Assembly (NCBI GenBank): GCA_963832165.1
Contig: CAWHTE010000002.1
Span: forward strand, 192,001-256,000
DNA from: an uncultured delta proteobacterium
Lineage (GTDB): Bacteria > Myxococcota_A > UBA9160 > SMWR01
Length of the DNA: 64,000 bases
Direction: 5' to 3'
Part shown: positions 738 through 40,384 of the stretch, one piece after another
Layout of the letters: every line of letters starts with the position of its first letter
How positions within the stretch are numbered: the first letter of the stretch is position 1
The notes under the pieces: generated by a model
The model's database searches: none
What the model was told of the DNA's origin: nothing
The model's input: only the letters and a program-made list of their open reading frames with translations
Program-made: the position numbers and the translations under genes

Positions 738-829
738 TCCATCTCCACGGACGCGGTGCGGTACATACGGTATCCGGCCCGCGCGCGAGCGTCTTCTCGA
801 ACGGGCCGGGTACACTCGCGAGCCCGCTT

Positions 830-870
830 GGTGGTCTTCGCTCGCCTGCGGCTCGCTGCGCGCAACTTGC
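830..870 (+). repeat. Dispersed 41-bp element, copy 1
   Basis: GGTGGTCTTCGCTCGCCTGCGGCTCGCTGCGCGCAACTTGC, 38/41 identical to the copy at 14786; directly followed by the GGAGG RBS. Confidence 0.9.
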
Positions 871-14184: not shown

Positions 14185-15309
14185 CTACGCAATCGGCCCC
14201 GCGACCTTTGGCGCCACCTCCTCGACGAGCATCCGCAGCGACTCCTCCCAGCGTTCCTGCTCTCCGGTGAAGTCGTAGAGCACCACGAGCAGCGTGCCGA
14301 AGCCGCCCGTGTCGTGTTGCAGCTGCTGGAGCTTCTCGGTCACCGTCGCGGGCGAGCCCACGAGCCAGTTGCGGTCGACGAGGTAGTCGACGTTCAGCAT
14401 CGAATCCGGCTCGCTCGGATCGTTCTTGAAGTGCGCGCCCATTCCGCTGCCCACGTAGAACGGCAGCAGGTATTCGCCCCAGCAGCGCCCCATCGCGCCG
14501 TCGCGCGCATATGCGCGCGCGCGCGCATCGGTGTCTGCGATGTACACCTCGCGCACGAGGCGCCACTCGCGGCGGTCGGGCACGCGCCCCGTGCGCGCGG
14601 CGCCGCGCAGCACCGAGTCCCAGTGCGACGCCGTGTGCGCCGGGTTGAGCGAGATCGAGAGCGGGAGGAAGCCGCGCTCGCCCGCGAGCTCGAGCGTCTT
14701 CGAGCCCGCGGAGAGGCCGGCGATGCCGATCGGCGGATGTGGAGTCTGGTAGGGCTTCAGGTGGACGCCCAGGAAATCGAGCCACGATGGTCTTCGCTCG
14801 CCTTCGGCTCGCTGCGCGCGACTTGCAGCGGTGTCGAGCCGTCGCACGTTCCAGAATTCTCCGTCGAAGTCGAATGCTCCCTCCTGCCAGAGCCGCAGCA
14901 TGATCTCGAGCGATTCGAGCGTGCGGCGCCGGTTCTCGCCGCCTTCGGCGTCCATGTCGTAGAGCATGAGGTCGCCCGGCAGCGCGCTGATTCCGACGCC
15001 GAGCATGTAGCGGCCACGTGCCATGTGATCGAGATAGGCGACGCGATGCGCGAGCTCGATCGGGTGGTGATAGGGCAAGAGGTGCGCGCCGGGCGCCAGC
15101 ACGATGTGCTCGGTCTCGCGCAGCGCCTGCGCGATCAGCAGATCGGGAGCTGGGCACGGCTCCCAGGGCGCGGTGAAGTGCTCGCCGATCCAGGCCTCGC
15201 GGAAGCCGAGTCCGTCGAGCAGGCGCAGCTGCGCGAGGTCGTAGTCGATGCCTGCGCGGATCCCGCGCTCGGGCGGGTGCGACGGCATGATGAACGCGCC
15301 GAGTTTCAT
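14185..15309 (-). CDS. LLM-class (luciferase-like) flavin-dependent monooxygenase
   Basis: WIGEHFT, LLPYHHPIELAHRVAYLDH, KPYQTPHPPIGIAG; ATGA overlap with the upstream gene. Confidence 0.92.
   Translation of the reverse strand: MKLGAFIMPSHPPERGIRAGIDYDLAQLRLLDGLGFREAWIGEHFTAPWEPCPAPDLLIAQALRETEHIVLAPGAHLLPYHHPIELAHRVAYLDHMARGRYMLGVGISALPGDLMLYDMDAEGGENRRRTLESLEIMLRLWQEGAFDFDGEFWNVRRLDTAASRAQRAEGERRPSWLDFLGVHLKPYQTPHPPIGIAGLSAGSKTLELAGERGFLPLSISLNPAHTASHWDSVLRGAARTGRVPDRREWRLVREVYIADTDARARAYARDGAMGRCWGEYLLPFYVGSGMGAHFKNDPSEPDSMLNVDYLVDRNWLVGSPATVTEKLQQLQHDTGGFGTLLVVLYDFTGEQERWEESLRMLVEEVAPKVAGPIA
14786..14826 (+). repeat. Dispersed 41-bp element, copy 2, in-frame inside the LLM gene
   Basis: GATGGTCTTCGCTCGCCTTCGGCTCGCTGCGCGCGACTTGC; read on the minus strand as [14 protein letters not shown]. 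Confidence 0.9.
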
Positions 15310-35352: not shown

Positions 35353-38014
35353 TCACGACCTCGCGGGCGCAGGCTTGCCGGGATCGATCCCGTACTTCTC
35401 GATCGCCTTCGTCACCGTCGAGGGCGGAACCTCTCCGTCGTCCATGAGCGCCTTCAGCGCCGCGAGCGCGACGTAGTAGCGGTTCACCTCGAAGAAGTGG
35501 CGCAGCTGCTCGCGCGTGTCGGAGCGGCCGAAGCCGTCGGTGCCGAGCACGACGTAGCGTCCGGGCACGAACGCGCGGATCTGGTCGGCGTGCACCTTCA
35601 TGTAGTCGGTCGCGGCGATCACGGGACCGCGCCGCGGCGCGAGCTCGCGCGACACCACGGGACTGCGCGGAGCGTCGGCGGGGTGCATCAGGTTCCAGCG
35701 CTCGGTGAGCAGCCCCTCGCGCCGCAGCTCGTTGAAGCTCGTCACGCTCCACACGTCGGCCTCGACGCTCCAGTCGTTGCGCAGGAGCTCCGCGGCCGCG
35801 CGAACCTCGCGCAGGATCGCGCCGCTCCCGAGCAGCTGAACGCGCGGCTGCGCACCCGCGGTGCCCTCCTCGAGCAGGTACATGCCGCGCACGATCCCCT
35901 CGCGCACGCCCTCGGGCATCGGCGGCTGCTCGTAGTTCTCGTTCAGCACCGTGATGTAGTAGAAGACGTCTTCCTGATCCGTGAGCATGCGGCGCAGGCC
36001 GTCCTGGATGATCACGGCGAGCTCGTAGGCATAGGTGGGGTCGTAGGCGACACAGTTCGGGATCGTCGACGCGATCAGGTGGCTGTGCCCGTCCTGGTGC
36101 TGGAGCCCTTCGCCCGCGAGCGTGGTGCGGCCCGAGGTGCCGCCGAGCAGGAAGCCGCGCGTACGCGAGTCGCCCGCGGCCCAGGCGAGGTCGCCGATGC
36201 GCTGGAACCCGAACATCGAGTAGAAGATGAAGAACGGGATCAGCTGCACGCCGTGGTTGGCGTAGGCGGTGCCCGCGGCGAGCCACGACGAGAACGCGCC
36301 GGCCTCGTTGATGCCCTCCTGGAGGATCTGTCCCTCGCGATCCTCGCGGTAGTACATCACCTGTTCGTGATCGACGGGCTCGTAGAGCTGGCCCTCGCAC
36401 GCGTAGATGCCGAGCTGGCGGAACAGGCCCTCCATGCCAAACGTGCGCGCCTCGTCGGCGACGATCGGAACCACGCGCTTGCCGAGCTCCGGATGTCGCG
36501 AGAGCGTGGTGAGGATGCGCACGAACGCCATCGTGGTGGAGATTTCGCGCTCGCCCGATCCCTTGAGCGCGGCGTCGAACGTCTCGAGCGGCGGTGCCTC
36601 GAGCGGCTGCGTGCGCGCCGTGCGCGCGGGCAGGTAGCCGCCGAGCGCCTGGCGGCGCTCGTGCATGTAGCGGATCTCGGGACTGTCCTCGGCGGGCTTG
36701 TAGAACGGCGCCTCGGCGATGCGATCGTCCGGAATCGGAATGCGATAGCGATCGCGGAACACGCGCAGCGCGTTCTCGCCCATCTTCTTCTGCGAATGGG
36801 TGATGTTCTGGCCCTCGCCGGCCTCGCCCATCCCATAGCCCTTCACGGTCTTGGCGAGGATCACCGTGGGCTGGCCGACGTGCTCCGTCGCCGCGGCGTA
36901 GGCCGCGTAGACCTTCTGCGGGTCGTGGCCGCCGCGGTTGAGCTGCCAGATATCGTCGTCGGTCATGTTGGCGACCATCTCGAGCAGCTCCGGGTACTTC
37001 CCGAAGAAGTGCTGCCGCGTGTAGGCGCCGCCACGCACCTTGTAGTTCTGGTAGTCGCCGTCGACGGCCTCTTCCATGCGCTTGAGCAGGAGGCCCTTGC
37101 GGTCGCGCGCGAGCAGCGGGTCCCAGCGGTCGCCCCAGATCACCTTGATCACGTTCCAGCCCGCGCCGCGGAACGTGCCCTCGAGCTCCTGGATGATCTT
37201 GCCGTTTCCGCGCACGGGGCCGTCGAGGCGCTGCAAATTGCAGTTCACGACGAAGATCAGGTTGTCGAGCTTCTCGCGCGCGGCGAGGCCGATCGCGCCG
37301 AGCGACTCGGGCTCGTCCATCTCGCCGTCGCCCATGAACGCCCATACCTTGCGCTCGTTCGCGTCGATCAGGCCGCGGTGCTCGAGGTACTTCATGAGCC
37401 GCGCCTGGTAGATCGCCATGATCGGACCCAGGCCCATCGACACGGTCGGGAACTGCCAGAAGTCGGGCATCAGCCACGGGTGCGGGTAGGAGGAGAGCCC
37501 GCGCGCGCCGACCTCCTGGCGGAAGCGGTGCATCTGCTGCTCGCTGATCCGCCCTTCGAGGAACGCGCGCGCGTAGAAGCCCGGCGAGCTGTGGCCCTGG
37601 ATGTAGAGCAGGTCGCCCATGAAGTCTTCGGTGGGCGCGTGGAAGAAGTGGTTGAAGCCGACGTCGTAGATGCGTCGCCGCGCTCGCGAAGCTCGCGATG
37701 TGCCCGCCGAGCCCTTCGTGTTCGCGGTTGGTCTGCACCACGAGCGCGAGCGCGTTCCAGCGGATGATCGAGCGGATGCGGTGCTCGAGGCCCGGCTCGC
37801 CCGGCGCCACCTTCTCGTCGTTCACGTGGATCGTGTTGAGATAGGCGGTGGTGGCCTTGTGCGGCAGGTGTGCGCCCGATCGGCGCGCCTTGTCGATCAG
37901 CTGCTCGATCAGGAAGTGCACGCGCTGCGTGCCCTCGCGCTGGAGGGCCGACTCGAGCGCGTCGAGCCACTCCTGGGTTTCCTGGGGATCGCTGTCGTGA
38001 GGCAGATCGGCCAT
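35353..38014 (-). CDS. aceE: Pyruvate dehydrogenase E1 (homodimeric), one frameshift near 37671
   Basis: DPQETQEWLDAL...GGHIASFASAAT / YDVGFNHFF...QGHSSPG, GDGEMDEPES, GEGLQHQDG, LGTDGFGRSD. Confidence 0.94.
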
Positions 38015-38982
38015 CAGAGGTCTCGCGCTGCGGCTGCGGTGCGGGCGGCCCGCAGCTGCTGGAAATCTGCATCGGCATGGTAGGACGAGCGCGTGAGCGG
38101 AGAAGACGACACGAGCAGGAAGCCGCGCGCGAGCGCCTGCTCGCGATGGCTCGCGAACTCCGCGGGGTCGGCATAGCGCGCGACGGGTGCGTGGCGCGGG
38201 GTCGGGCGCAGGTACTGCCCGATCGTGAGGAAGTCGACGTCGGCTTCGCGCAACGCATCCATCACCGCGAGCACCTCGTCCGGCGCTTCTCCCAAGCCCA
38301 GCATGAGACCGGATTTCGTGAACGCGGCGGGCTCGCACCGCTTGACGCGGCGCAGCAGGTCGACCGAGTGCGTGAAGCTCGCGCCGGGGCGGATCTGGCG
38401 ATAGAGCCGCGGCACGGTCTCGACGTTGTGGTTGTAGACGTCGGGTCGCGCGGCTGCGACGCGCTCGATCGCGCCTTCCTTGTGCCGGAAGTCCGGCGTG
38501 AGGATCTCGATCGTGGTGTGGGGACAGCGCGCGCGAATGTGCTCGATGCAGCGCACGAAGTGCTGTGCGCCGCCGTCCTCGAGGTCGTCGCGGTCGACCG
38601 ACGTGATCACGACGTGGCGCAGGCCGAGCTCGGCGACAGCATCCGCGAGCCGCGCGGGCTCGTCCGGATCGACGCGGTCGGGCAGGCCCGTGGCGACGTT
38701 GCAGAACGCGCACGCGCGCGTGCACACGGTGCCGAGCACCATCACCGTCGCGTGTCGCTGCGACCAGCACTCGTGCAGGTTCGGGCACGCGGCCTCCTCA
38801 CAGACCGTGCCGAGCTTCCGGCCGCGCAGGATCGCGCGCGTGCGGAGCAGCTCGGGTGTCTCGCGCACGTGCACGCGAAGCCACGGGGGCTTGGGCAGCG
38901 GGGCGTCGCCCGCAAGTCGTGCGGAGCGAGCCGAAGGCGAGCGAAGGCCATCGGATCCGGCAGGAGACGGGCTGCGGGCCAT
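38014..38982 (-). CDS. lipA: Lipoyl synthase
   Basis: [35 protein letters not shown]. Confidence 0.96.
38912..38952 (-). repeat. Dispersed 41-bp element, copy 3, in the LipA N-terminal extension
   Basis: Reverse complement GATGGCCTTCGCTCGCCTTCGGCTCGCTCCGCACGACTTGC, 38/41 identical to copy 2; encodes [14 protein letters not shown]. Confidence 0.9.
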
Positions 38983-39037
38983 GACTTCCGGTCAGTGTTC
39001 CGGCGCAGCCACACGGAGTCAAGCGATCGCGCCCGCG

Positions 39038-40384
39038 TCAGAACGCGATGCGCGCGATCGTCGAGAACGAGCAGTAGTAGAGATCATTGGACCAGCCCGG
39101 CGCGGGAAACACCACGGACTGGAACAGGGTCGGAACCGACGCGCGCGCTCTCTCTTCGCCGGTCGCGATGTCGAGCAGCACCACGTCCTCGGCGGTCGCG
39201 CGCGCGAGTCGCCGCCGCACGGCGGGATGGGTCGCAATCGGTGCGAGCCAGCGCGACACGGCGCGAAACGCGCGCGTGCGGAACAGCGCGGGCGCGTGGA
39301 AGTCGTAGGCGACGAGCGTCCCGGTGTCCGGGAATCGGATCAGGTGCCCCGCGGTGGCGAGCGGCCGCTTCCAGAGCGGCTCGAGCGCTCCCGACTCGGT
39401 GTGACGCCACGCCGCGATCACGCCGTTGCCCGAGTCGTAGGCGACGGCGATCCGACGCGCGGGATCGTAGACCGGGGGATTGGTACACGTGCCGTACGCG
39501 ATCCCGGAGATTTCGACGGAATCGTGATCCCGGGCGTCCGCCAGCGAGACGCGGTAGAGCCGGATCGCGCGTCTCGCGATGCCCGCGCCTAGCATGGTTC
39601 CCGTGTAATCGTGCTCACCCTGGTCCATGAACCAGGCGTGACCTCCCTCGAGCACGACGTCCCAGCCATAGCTCTGATCGGAGTGCTCGCGATAGCGGTG
39701 GCTCCACGACCGATCGCGCACGAGAGCACGACCGTCCCAGGCGAGCCGGAACAGCGTGTGATCGCCGAGCGCATAGATCGAGTTGCCGTCCCCGGACAGC
39801 CGCGCGATCGAGGGCTCGGGCAGCGGCACGGGCGCGCAGGCGGGCTCGAGCGACTCGGGATCGAGCACGGAGAGCAGCGCCGGCTCGCGCGTCGCGTGAT
39901 CGAAGTCCTTGGTGACGATCAGACCGCAGTCGAGCAGCACGAACGAGTTGTAGGGTCGCGCGCGCGGCAGCGCGTGGCTCCGAAGCGGCGCGAGATCCGC
40001 GCTCAGGCGGTGCGCGTGGCGCCCGAACACCACGTAGAGCGATCCGTTCGCGTGGCAGGCCATGCCGCCGGGCCAGAACGGGCCGGCGGCGAGATCGGGC
40101 GAGCGCGCGAGCGTCGAGAGCGTCTCTGGATCGAGCCGCTCGACCCAGGCGATGCAGGGCTGCCCGGGTCGGGTCGGCATCGTATGGCGCAGCGCGAACA
40201 GCTCACCGGGCTCGCGCAGCACGAGCATGGTCGCACCGAACGCGTCGCGGTGTGTGACGGTCGGCGCGCGATCCCCGGCGCACACGACTCCCGCGATTCC
40301 GACGGGCGCCTGCGAGCGCCGCGGCCCTCCATCCTCCGCTGGCCAGGGGCTCTTCCAATAGCTCGCGGCGTCGCGTTCGCTCAC
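39038..40384 (-). CDS. Hypothetical protein (possible beta-propeller)
   Basis: GTGA overlap with the upstream gene; 448 aa of coding-like composition; no family recognised. Confidence 0.7.
   Translation of the reverse strand: MSERDAASYWKSPWPAEDGGPRRSQAPVGIAGVVCAGDRAPTVTHRDAFGATMLVLREPGELFALRHTMPTRPGQPCIAWVERLDPETLSTLARSPDLAAGPFWPGGMACHANGSLYVVFGRHAHRLSADLAPLRSHALPRARPYNSFVLLDCGLIVTKDFDHATREPALLSVLDPESLEPACAPVPLPEPSIARLSGDGNSIYALGDHTLFRLAWDGRALVRDRSWSHRYREHSDQSYGWDVVLEGGHAWFMDQGEHDYTGTMLGAGIARRAIRLYRVSLADARDHDSVEISGIAYGTCTNPPVYDPARRIAVAYDSGNGVIAAWRHTESGALEPLWKRPLATAGHLIRFPDTGTLVAYDFHAPALFRTRAFRAVSRWLAPIATHPAVRRRLARATAEDVVLLDIATGEERARASVPTLFQSVVFPAPGWSNDLYYCSFSTIARIAF

Follow-up and report, generated by a model that had tools for sequence, protein, structure and literature searches.

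We analysed a 64,000-nt stretch of DNA (referred to below as the window; positions C2:192001-256000 of its assembly) from a metagenome-assembled genome (MAG) of a member of the Myxococcota, called G000 here (5.54 Mb, 70% G+C, 11 contigs, 89% completeness), and examined a short repeat that occurs three times within it, twice inside genes. We conclude, with a probability of roughly 80%, that this repeat belongs to a real and abundant family of short, non-autonomous mobile elements of a soil Myxococcota lineage, with a unit of 42 nt and a usual net insertion of 45 nt. The copy number of the family, its conservation across genomes, the insertion polymorphism of its copies, their in-frame insertion into proteins, their orientation bias and their nesting within one another were all observed directly.

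An initial annotation of the window had described the repeat as a 41-mer present at 830-870 (+), 14786-14826 (+) and 38912-38952 (reverse complement), with the first and third copies each matching the second at 38/41. Both the positions and the identities were reproduced, and the remaining pair matches at 35/41. When up to three mismatches are allowed, the 27-nt core of the element occurs at exactly three sites in the window, versus 0.00 expected from 100 dinucleotide-preserving shuffles. The unit itself is 42 nt long at all three sites. Throughout this work the "sense" strand is the one co-oriented with genes, which is opposite to the 41-mer as first listed, and the strands of the copies in Table 1 follow this definition. 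The two 14-residue peptides attributed to the element, one within the luciferase-like (LLM) flavin oxidoreductase before a KPYQxPHPP motif and one read from the opposite strand in lipA, were recovered from the corresponding open reading frames (ORFs), the former directly ahead of KPYQTPHPP. The element was also said to be free of stop codons in all six frames; this is true but unremarkable, as the same holds for 79,504 of 200,000 random 42-mers (40%) of this genome. Insertion inside proteins, as proposed for the element, applies to copies 2 and 3, and not to copy 1, which lies in no protein: a HAD-type hydrolase gene (881-1639, + strand) has its GGAGG-GTG start 11 nt beyond the forward end of this copy.

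Table 1. Copies of the element in the window with their host genes, and insertions of the element in G000 identified by comparison with orthologues.
Feature	Position in window	Strand	Net insertion	Remarks
Copy 1	829..870	-		Intergenic, divergent region
Copy 2	14785..14826	-		LLM gene is coded on the sense strand (GCAAG...CCATCG); 45 nt / 15 aa absent from orthologues
27-nt core of copy 2	14792..14818	-		Sense CGCGCAGCGAG-CC-GAA-GG-CGAGCGAAG
LLM flavin oxidoreductase, 374 aa (host of copy 2)	14185..15309	-	+45 nt, exactly 15 residues	Gene call, PF00296, orthologues; insert absent in G004 (93% identity), G013 (78%) and G035 (53%)
Copy 3	38912..38953	+		Rare antisense orientation to host; inside lipA codons 11-24
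Lipoyl synthase LipA, 322 aa (host of copy 3)	38014..38982	-	+42 nt, 14 aa	Insert absent in L020, L021 and L095; conserved ATG at 38982 and upstream promoter-like block align with L019 and L020
RadA			+45 nt, 15 residues	Just after the Walker A motif
BirA			+45 nt, 15 residues
PurH			+45 nt, 15 residues
AMP-binding enzyme			+45 nt, 15 residues
Gene preceding a hemH-like gene, 3' end			+45 nt
Codon 5 of another gene			+42 nt
DUF3604 protein				Insert common to G000 and G004; absent in G003, G005 and G006

In order to determine whether these copies represent inserted DNA, we compared the loci with their orthologues and scored insertion polymorphism against genomes of the same genus. The alignment of the LLM protein with its orthologues, which the initial annotation had put forward as a check, leaves a gap of exactly 15 residues at the element at every level of identity covered (Table 1); the inserted 45 nt consist of the copy 2 unit and positions 14782-14784. 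The protein matches PF00296 (E 1.8e-40) in one stretch, 1-333, that spans the insert. An attempt to place the insert in a loop by structure prediction gave a mean pLDDT of 43 with a 4-sequence alignment and was unusable. The corresponding check of LipA gave the same picture, with three orthologues lacking 42 nt at this place and the start codon conserved, and a partly decayed copy is present at the same position of lipA in L019, whose LipA is 85% identical. Inserts in lipA and in the DUF3604 gene are thus shared between species, and therefore some of them have outlived speciation. Pfam families were matched by 17 of 19 other hosts of mid-ORF copies, and the insert lies within a single domain stretch in the DUF3604 protein, BirA, a KaiC/RadA-type ATPase, two AMP-binding enzymes, a DUF6607 protein and PurH. 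Filled and empty alleles were also found at gene boundaries: the element lies directly ahead of the radA ATG; two units and a half unit occupy the panB-panC spacer, which is 7-20 nt long; and in G004 the element end AAAGGTGGA replaces the native GGAAGGAGG ahead of an orthologous start.

The recurrence of one peptide in many proteins, together with the DUF3604 and LipA inserts that are each common to two species, could also be read as an ancestral or convergently selected protein motif rather than as inserted DNA. We consider this extremely improbable. Two main sense frames of the same DNA are used, as are a rare third one and the opposite strand; 53 of the 103 standard units described below are intergenic; orthologues at 93% identity cleanly lack the insert; and nucleotide identity between copies is far above that of the host genes. 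Intergenic copies, clean gaps in orthologues and multiple reading frames refute the protein-motif reading, and the earlier interpretation of the repeat as inserted DNA holds. It is just as implausible that metagenome assembly or binning at the repeat produced the copies inside genes as artefacts. G000 is indeed an incomplete MAG in 11 contigs, and short-read contigs of other samples break at the element, but frames are open and in phase across every insert checked, inserts are shared with the independently assembled L019 and G004, and one independent metagenome contig (X4, record 26) extends from the LLM flank 17 nt into the element.

We then examined the size and architecture of the family. 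The initial annotation had called for a search for further genomic copies, and these are plentiful: across G000, the 41-mer has 112 matches with at most eight mismatches and the core CTTCGCTCGCCTTCGGCTCGCTGCGCG has 180 with at most four. The sense-strand unit, GCAAGTTTCGCGCAGCGAGCCGAAGGCGAGCGAAGACCATCR, is 42 nt long and is usually followed by GGTGGGC. Three architectures, types A, B and C, have the 27-nt core in common. Type A is the standard type, represented by 103 copies including those in the window. In types B and C, GCAAG is followed by an additional perfect hairpin with a C-GAA-G loop, and the 3' tails are different; the stems of these extra hairpins differ and the loop is the same. 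The element can thus be described as a set of modules around the core, with GCAAG and an optional GAA-loop hairpin on the 5' side and ...CGAAGNCCATCRGGTGGGC or other tails on the 3' side.

The core can be folded into a hairpin with seven pair positions, five of them Watson-Crick, around a central tandem G.A/A.G and capped by a GAA triloop. The stem on the sense strand runs G-C, C-G, [G.A, A.G], G-C, S-S, C-G, and the opposite strand would contain pyrimidine mismatches. Across the 180 core copies there is no variation at A10 or G20 and most variation at loop position 15, and positions 12 and 18 form C-G in 130 copies and G-C in 43, the other 7 being non-complementary. The sense-strand hairpin is likely to exist, and this arrangement suggests that its strand matters. 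Neighboring copies within 300 bp of each other are direct in six cases and inverted in none, and four direct tandem pairs in G000 have a period of exactly 42; tandem joints of units are also present in metagenome contigs. Core-bearing arrays of three units were observed in other genomes (G030:C26:10782-10916, period 54 nt; G030:C11:23878-24018, 57; G038:C8:74624-74738, 44; G127:C16:81095-81223, 51; G225:C2:1554079-1554285, 90). The array periods in those genomes span 44-90 nt and are mostly multiples of three, and some of these arrays may be coding.

The distribution of the element was determined in 41 related genomes using the core with its two covarying positions left free and at most two mismatches, with the reversed core as a control. 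The core is present in 30 of the 41 genomes, from 12 families of the same order, at 1-370 copies each, and absent from 11; the reversed control has no matches in any of the 41. In a sample across the phylum it was found in 20 of 201 genomes, almost all from the same order or class, plus 2 of 13 from another family. The core remains constant where host proteins have diverged to 53% identity, and therefore it is held by something beyond the common descent of neutral DNA. In four independent soil-type metagenomes, contig depth on positions 14794-14814 is 53-378x, versus about 2-7x in most flanking bins. Independent metagenome contigs diverge from the window at 14785-14788 and at 14818/14826; these breaks fix the ends of the unit independently. 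The best-matching sequencing runs share at most 26% of words, and no RNA run was among those listed. No contig that skips the element was seen in these data, and these results have no bearing on expression or on polymorphism. Rfam holds no family for the element, its sole match being a chance-level miRNA beside it. Four 17-mers of the core matched no paper in the literature searched, and keyword searches on Myxococcota repeats returned nothing specific, subscription journals and supplements lying outside the coverage.

The position of the copies relative to genes was examined using genes called with a codon log-odds model made for this analysis (4777 genes, 86% coding). By these calls, 44 of the 103 type A units lie in ORFs, 53 are intergenic and 6 overlap an ORF end. 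The 44 in-ORF copies were re-scored by the coding signal of their flanks: 14 are securely mid-gene, with both flanks coding in the same frame; 19 are C-terminal, no more than 30 codons from the end of an ORF with a clear coding signal upstream; 5 are N-terminal, in the first codons; and 6 are doubtful. Types B and C contribute eight more mid-gene copies (three of type B and five of type C) and ten more C-terminal ones. Given a coding fraction of 86%, the copies are located in gene interiors far less often than would be expected. The family is mainly a gene-boundary and intergenic one, in which in-frame copies are a minority. The initial proposal of an independent and much shorter coding repeat family was thus right in substance and over-weighted the coding copies, as 14 of 103 standard units are securely mid-gene.

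The copies are strongly oriented. The sense strand of the element is the coding strand in 41 of the 44 in-ORF type A copies, and in spacers between co-directional genes 28 copies lie with the genes and 7 against them; divergent spacers hold 15 copies and convergent ones 3. Reading in both orientations, which the initial annotation had presented as a property of the element, does occur in the antisense copy of lipA, but it is an exception, limited to 3 of the 44 copies in ORFs plus LipA. Replication was considered as a source of the bias and rejected, since the orientation of copies tracks genes rather than GC skew: the ratio in G>C regions is 45:35, or 56%, which is also the value for genes. 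Among the 41 co-oriented copies in ORFs, the three sense frames account for 15, 25 and 1, and the rare third frame encodes the very basic KFRAASRRRAKTI. Since the peptide of this third frame has a strongly basic character, and the antisense peptides are either hydrophobic or contain cysteine, we infer that the orientation and frame bias arises at least partly from selection.

Many copies are found close to the beginnings of genes. A called start lies within 30 nt downstream of the 3' end in 25 of the 103 type A units, and before such starts the AGGTGG, GGAGGG or AAGGGG end of the unit is at the position expected of a Shine-Dalgarno (SD) sequence. The C-terminal ORF copies are mostly located where co-directional genes meet with overlapping stop and start codons, in the segment that contains the ribosome-binding site of the next gene. 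These observations raise an alternative, based on sequence features, in which the element would be a functional cis-module rather than a selfish repeat: an mRNA hairpin with an SD-like tail, kept by selection at operon junctions and in 5' untranslated regions for translation initiation, mRNA processing or mRNA stability, with in-gene copies as by-products. This would fit the co-orientation with genes, which extends to copies outside ORFs, as well as the AGGTGG/GGAGGG ends at SD distance from start codons, the substitution of a native SD by the element end in G004, the purine-rich structured strand, which is the mRNA-like one, and the near-invariance of the core across an order whose proteins have diverged. 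However, the orthologous sites in congeners work without the element, copies nest in one another and sit in enzyme loops, which no regulatory role needs, 11 of the 41 relatives do without the element altogether, and Rfam has no such family. We therefore regard a cis-module as an unlikely account of the family, and continue with the mobile-repeat interpretation.

Nesting is frequent. In 22 of the 103 type A units a second copy is split around the unit, with its 5' half upstream and its 3' half downstream; an extra 3' half alone accompanies 15 units and an extra 5' half alone accompanies one. Elements make up about 0.15% of the genome, yet 22 of 103 are nested, which therefore points to a very strong preference for the center of the element itself. 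G000 also contains a second repeat family of the canonical REP (repetitive extragenic palindromic) kind, GTAGGGCGGATTAGCCCGAAGGGCGTAATCCGCC, with a GTAG head and roughly 50 loci, often in inverted pairs like REPINs (for example C2:428945-429030, C5:256754-256880 and C11:69210-69300). Its apices vary and include GCCC-GAA-GGGC, GGCC-GAA-GGCC, GCGAAGC and GCGAGC-GAA-GCGAGC, the last of which resembles the core of our element. The apical GAA loop of this REP is the exact position of three or four type A units, which add 41, 42 or 43 nt. Units are found both in the center of their own kind and in the GAA apex of a REP, and thus GAA-loop hairpins are a recurrent landing site.

This pattern also invites the explanation that copies spread with no dedicated transposase, by template switching during replication or by gene conversion between short GAA-loop hairpins, in the manner of quasi-palindromes and with microhomology at junctions. 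No transposase is linked to the copies, and neither target-site duplications (TSDs) nor terminal inverted repeats (TIRs) were found: the two ends of the element (GCAAGTTTCGCG and ...GACCATCAGGTGG) do not form an inverted pair, and at the junctions a few bases have been substituted instead of duplicated. Insertions are located at the apices of hairpins, both those of the element and those of the REP family, modules L and R recur independently (15 units with L only), and the native GACGACCACGG at C4:85187 is similar to the element's own 3' end, GAAGACCATGG. On the other hand, 100-370 copies with near-identical cores in many genera exceed the usual yield of such events, many target sites have no obvious hairpin or homology, and complementarity of the flanks is not above control. 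Template switching as the general mode of spread appears improbable to us.

Since the initial annotation had suggested looking for a RAYT or HUH transposase flanked by copies, we also searched for a candidate mobilizing enzyme of this kind; no such gene was found in G000. The genome has 12 ORFs similar to Y1_Tnp (PF01797), about 230 aa in length and with an H-x-H-L-V-V-E motif (e.g. C11:917879-918556, C3:43921-44607 and C11:229607-230281). These paralogues have diverged from one another, to about 70-85% nucleotide and about 54-87% amino acid identity, and are not recent copies; the family is also multi-copy in 8 of the 41 relatives, at 6-22 copies each. One of the 12 has core matches within 4 kb, at about 1.4 and 2.1 kb. 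A Y1_Tnp/RAYT protein as the mobilizer was rejected on the position of the genes and their distribution across genomes, the details of which are given below.

The mobile-repeat interpretation leads to the following scenario. New copies would land in GAA-loop hairpins, either in the center of an existing copy or at the apex of a canonical REP, and also, with the orientation of the gene, in the short spacers and gene ends that immediately precede start codons; both tendencies are suggested by the positions of the copies. The AGGTGG/GGAGGG 3' end of a start-proximal copy would then come to lie at the position of a ribosome-binding site. Within genes, a copy would survive only if its length were a multiple of three and its frame encoded one of two hydrophilic peptides. 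Such copies lengthen otherwise conserved enzymes by 14-15 residues, in variable loops or at the ends. As a working guess, the mobilizer may be a trans-acting enzyme that recognizes the sense-strand hairpin on single-stranded DNA, which would also permit a link to transcription through the exposed non-template strand. A more ambitious version is also conceivable, although we consider it doubtful: a strand-specific hairpin element with no transposase, near letter-perfect across an entire class of Myxococcota, would home to GAA-triloop hairpins and to start regions in the direction of transcription. It would serve as a portable ribosome-binding or junction module and leave loops of 14-15 residues in RadA, BirA, PurH, Mfd and LipA as a by-product, and it would be moved by a host function (replication, repair or a transcription-coupled process acting on the non-template strand), with no element-encoded or RAYT-type enzyme.

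A number of results weigh against the mobile-repeat interpretation or parts of it. Flanking the inserts in LLM, RadA, BirA and lipA and those at C4:72507 and C4:85187, no TSD or other direct repeat was found in comparisons at 75-93% identity, a level at which junction bases differ from the empty alleles and the cut sites cannot be fixed. No Y1_Tnp-like gene in G000 is flanked by either repeat family within 1 kb; none was found with this query in G003, G004, G005, G009 and G016, which carry 90-200 copies of the element; and G015 has such a gene and 0 copies. Folding energies calculated with ViennaRNA, which handles sheared G.A pairs poorly, are not significantly beyond those of shuffled sequences (sense strand, z -1.56; opposite strand, z -0.23), and the lone strong covariation in the stem may reflect one event that split two subfamilies. 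Site-specific flanking hairpins were rejected as a general target, since complementarity of the flanks, scored per copy, is found in 13 of 103 units versus 10.2 of 103 in a shuffled control. The gene caller is crude, placing the lipA start too far downstream and merging panB with panC, which makes all position counts approximate. An NTGA overlap of stop and start, as in the -4 coupling of the MIRUs discussed below, follows the element in 15 of 49 type A copies, which is not above the background of 34% of all called starts. Finally, the enrichment near starts could reflect tolerance rather than targeting.

Repeats that insert in frame are already known, including Rickettsia palindromic elements (RPEs) and intragenic ERIC sequences (PMC10969869). 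RPEs are about 150 bp long, occur between genes and in frame within unrelated housekeeping genes, where they add a conserved peptide and leave the host protein intact, and have 44 in-gene copies in R. conorii (PMC10969869). The element described here is similar in being found in frame in several unrelated conserved genes (LLM, RadA, BirA, PurH, an AMP-binding enzyme and LipA) and absent from their orthologues. In contrast, RPEs comprise ten families in obligate intracellular Alphaproteobacteria, and our element, at 42-45 bp and in free-living soil Myxococcota, is set apart by size and host phylum. It also differs in being biased in orientation relative to genes (41/44), self-nesting and located mostly at gene boundaries.

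Mycobacterial interspersed repetitive units (MIRUs) are tens of base pairs long, lie between co-directional genes in the orientation of those genes and form short direct tandem arrays. They appear to be mobile and to insert at start codons (PMC12548453). Our element resembles them in its co-orientation within spacers (28 vs 7), its proximity to starts (25 of 103 units within 30 nt) and its four tandem pairs of period 42, and the panB-panC spacer and the radA leader are sites of the MIRU type. It differs from MIRUs in phylum and sequence, in having no enrichment of the -4 stop/start coupling and in being located also mid-gene in frame and in hairpin apices. By analogy, the element may be described as MIRU-like between genes and RPE-like inside genes. 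It is distinct from both in its size, its phylum, its self-nesting and in doing both at once.

With REPs and REPINs the element shares its short length, high G+C content, capacity to form a hairpin, high copy number and long residence in the lineage. Furthermore, the resident REP shares the C-GAA-G loop at its apex, which is in some cases GCGAGC-GAA-GCGAGC, similar to the core. REPs are extragenic by definition. We rejected an assignment to REP/REPIN, since the palindrome here covers the seven-position core stem and not one whole hairpin, there is no GTAG head, inverted doublets are absent, and in place of the RAYT association no Y1/RAYT gene flanked by the element was found and the distributions of gene and element do not match. 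[quoted passage not shown] Correia, ERIC, Nezha and QMITE are described in PMC10969869 as non-autonomous MITEs with occasional in-frame intragenic copies and effects on the expression of neighboring genes. Our element is likewise non-autonomous and has in-frame intragenic copies, but it is far shorter, and assignment to MITEs was rejected as no TIR and no TSD were found, within the resolution that 75-93% identity allows.

In-frame selfish repeats have so far been a curiosity of reduced intracellular genomes such as those of Rickettsia, and repeats that seek start codons one of mycobacteria. In the present case a single, very short element combines both behaviors in large soil bacteria that are free-living, with a sequence that is conserved throughout an order. 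The inserts beside the Walker A motif of RadA and inside BirA offer natural experiments on the tolerance and use of 15-residue loops by proteins, and the orientation bias and self-nesting provide handles for finding the mechanism of insertion. The element also carries a warning for the annotation of MAGs with high G+C content, in which contigs break at such repeats and ORF callers run through them, as seen at the lipA start and at panB-panC.

Several loci that carry the element showed additional features. At C11:613080-614912 of G000 (L116/L122), the N-terminal 207 residues of PanB lie in one open frame with PanC, and the conserved TAG stop of panB lies in another frame, which suggests a panB frameshift in G000, either real or due to an assembly error. 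A fusion of panB and panC through the element was considered and rejected: the panB stop is conserved, two units lie in the spacer, and the merged call is a caller artefact or a frameshift. A putative CoA-binding-SUI1 fusion running through the element was noted as well. Upstream of radA, an inverted repeat, CTGTCAACC...GGTTGACG, is kept in five congeners (G000 C7:403100-403190 (L118:13080-13200), L138, L129, L127 and L132) and is possibly an operator or promoter element. Within RadA, at the loop orthologous to G000 C7:403573 after the Walker A motif, L129 (G002:C73) has a different insertion of about 19 codons that is not this element, and this loop is a repeated site of length change. The site in L145 (G003:C393) that is orthologous to G000 C5:351579 indicates independent hits at a hot spot. 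Finally, a TTGAC...(A/G)ACACT block upstream of the lipA start (positions 38990-39080 of the window, - strand) is conserved in G000, L019, L020 and L095 and is probably the promoter region.

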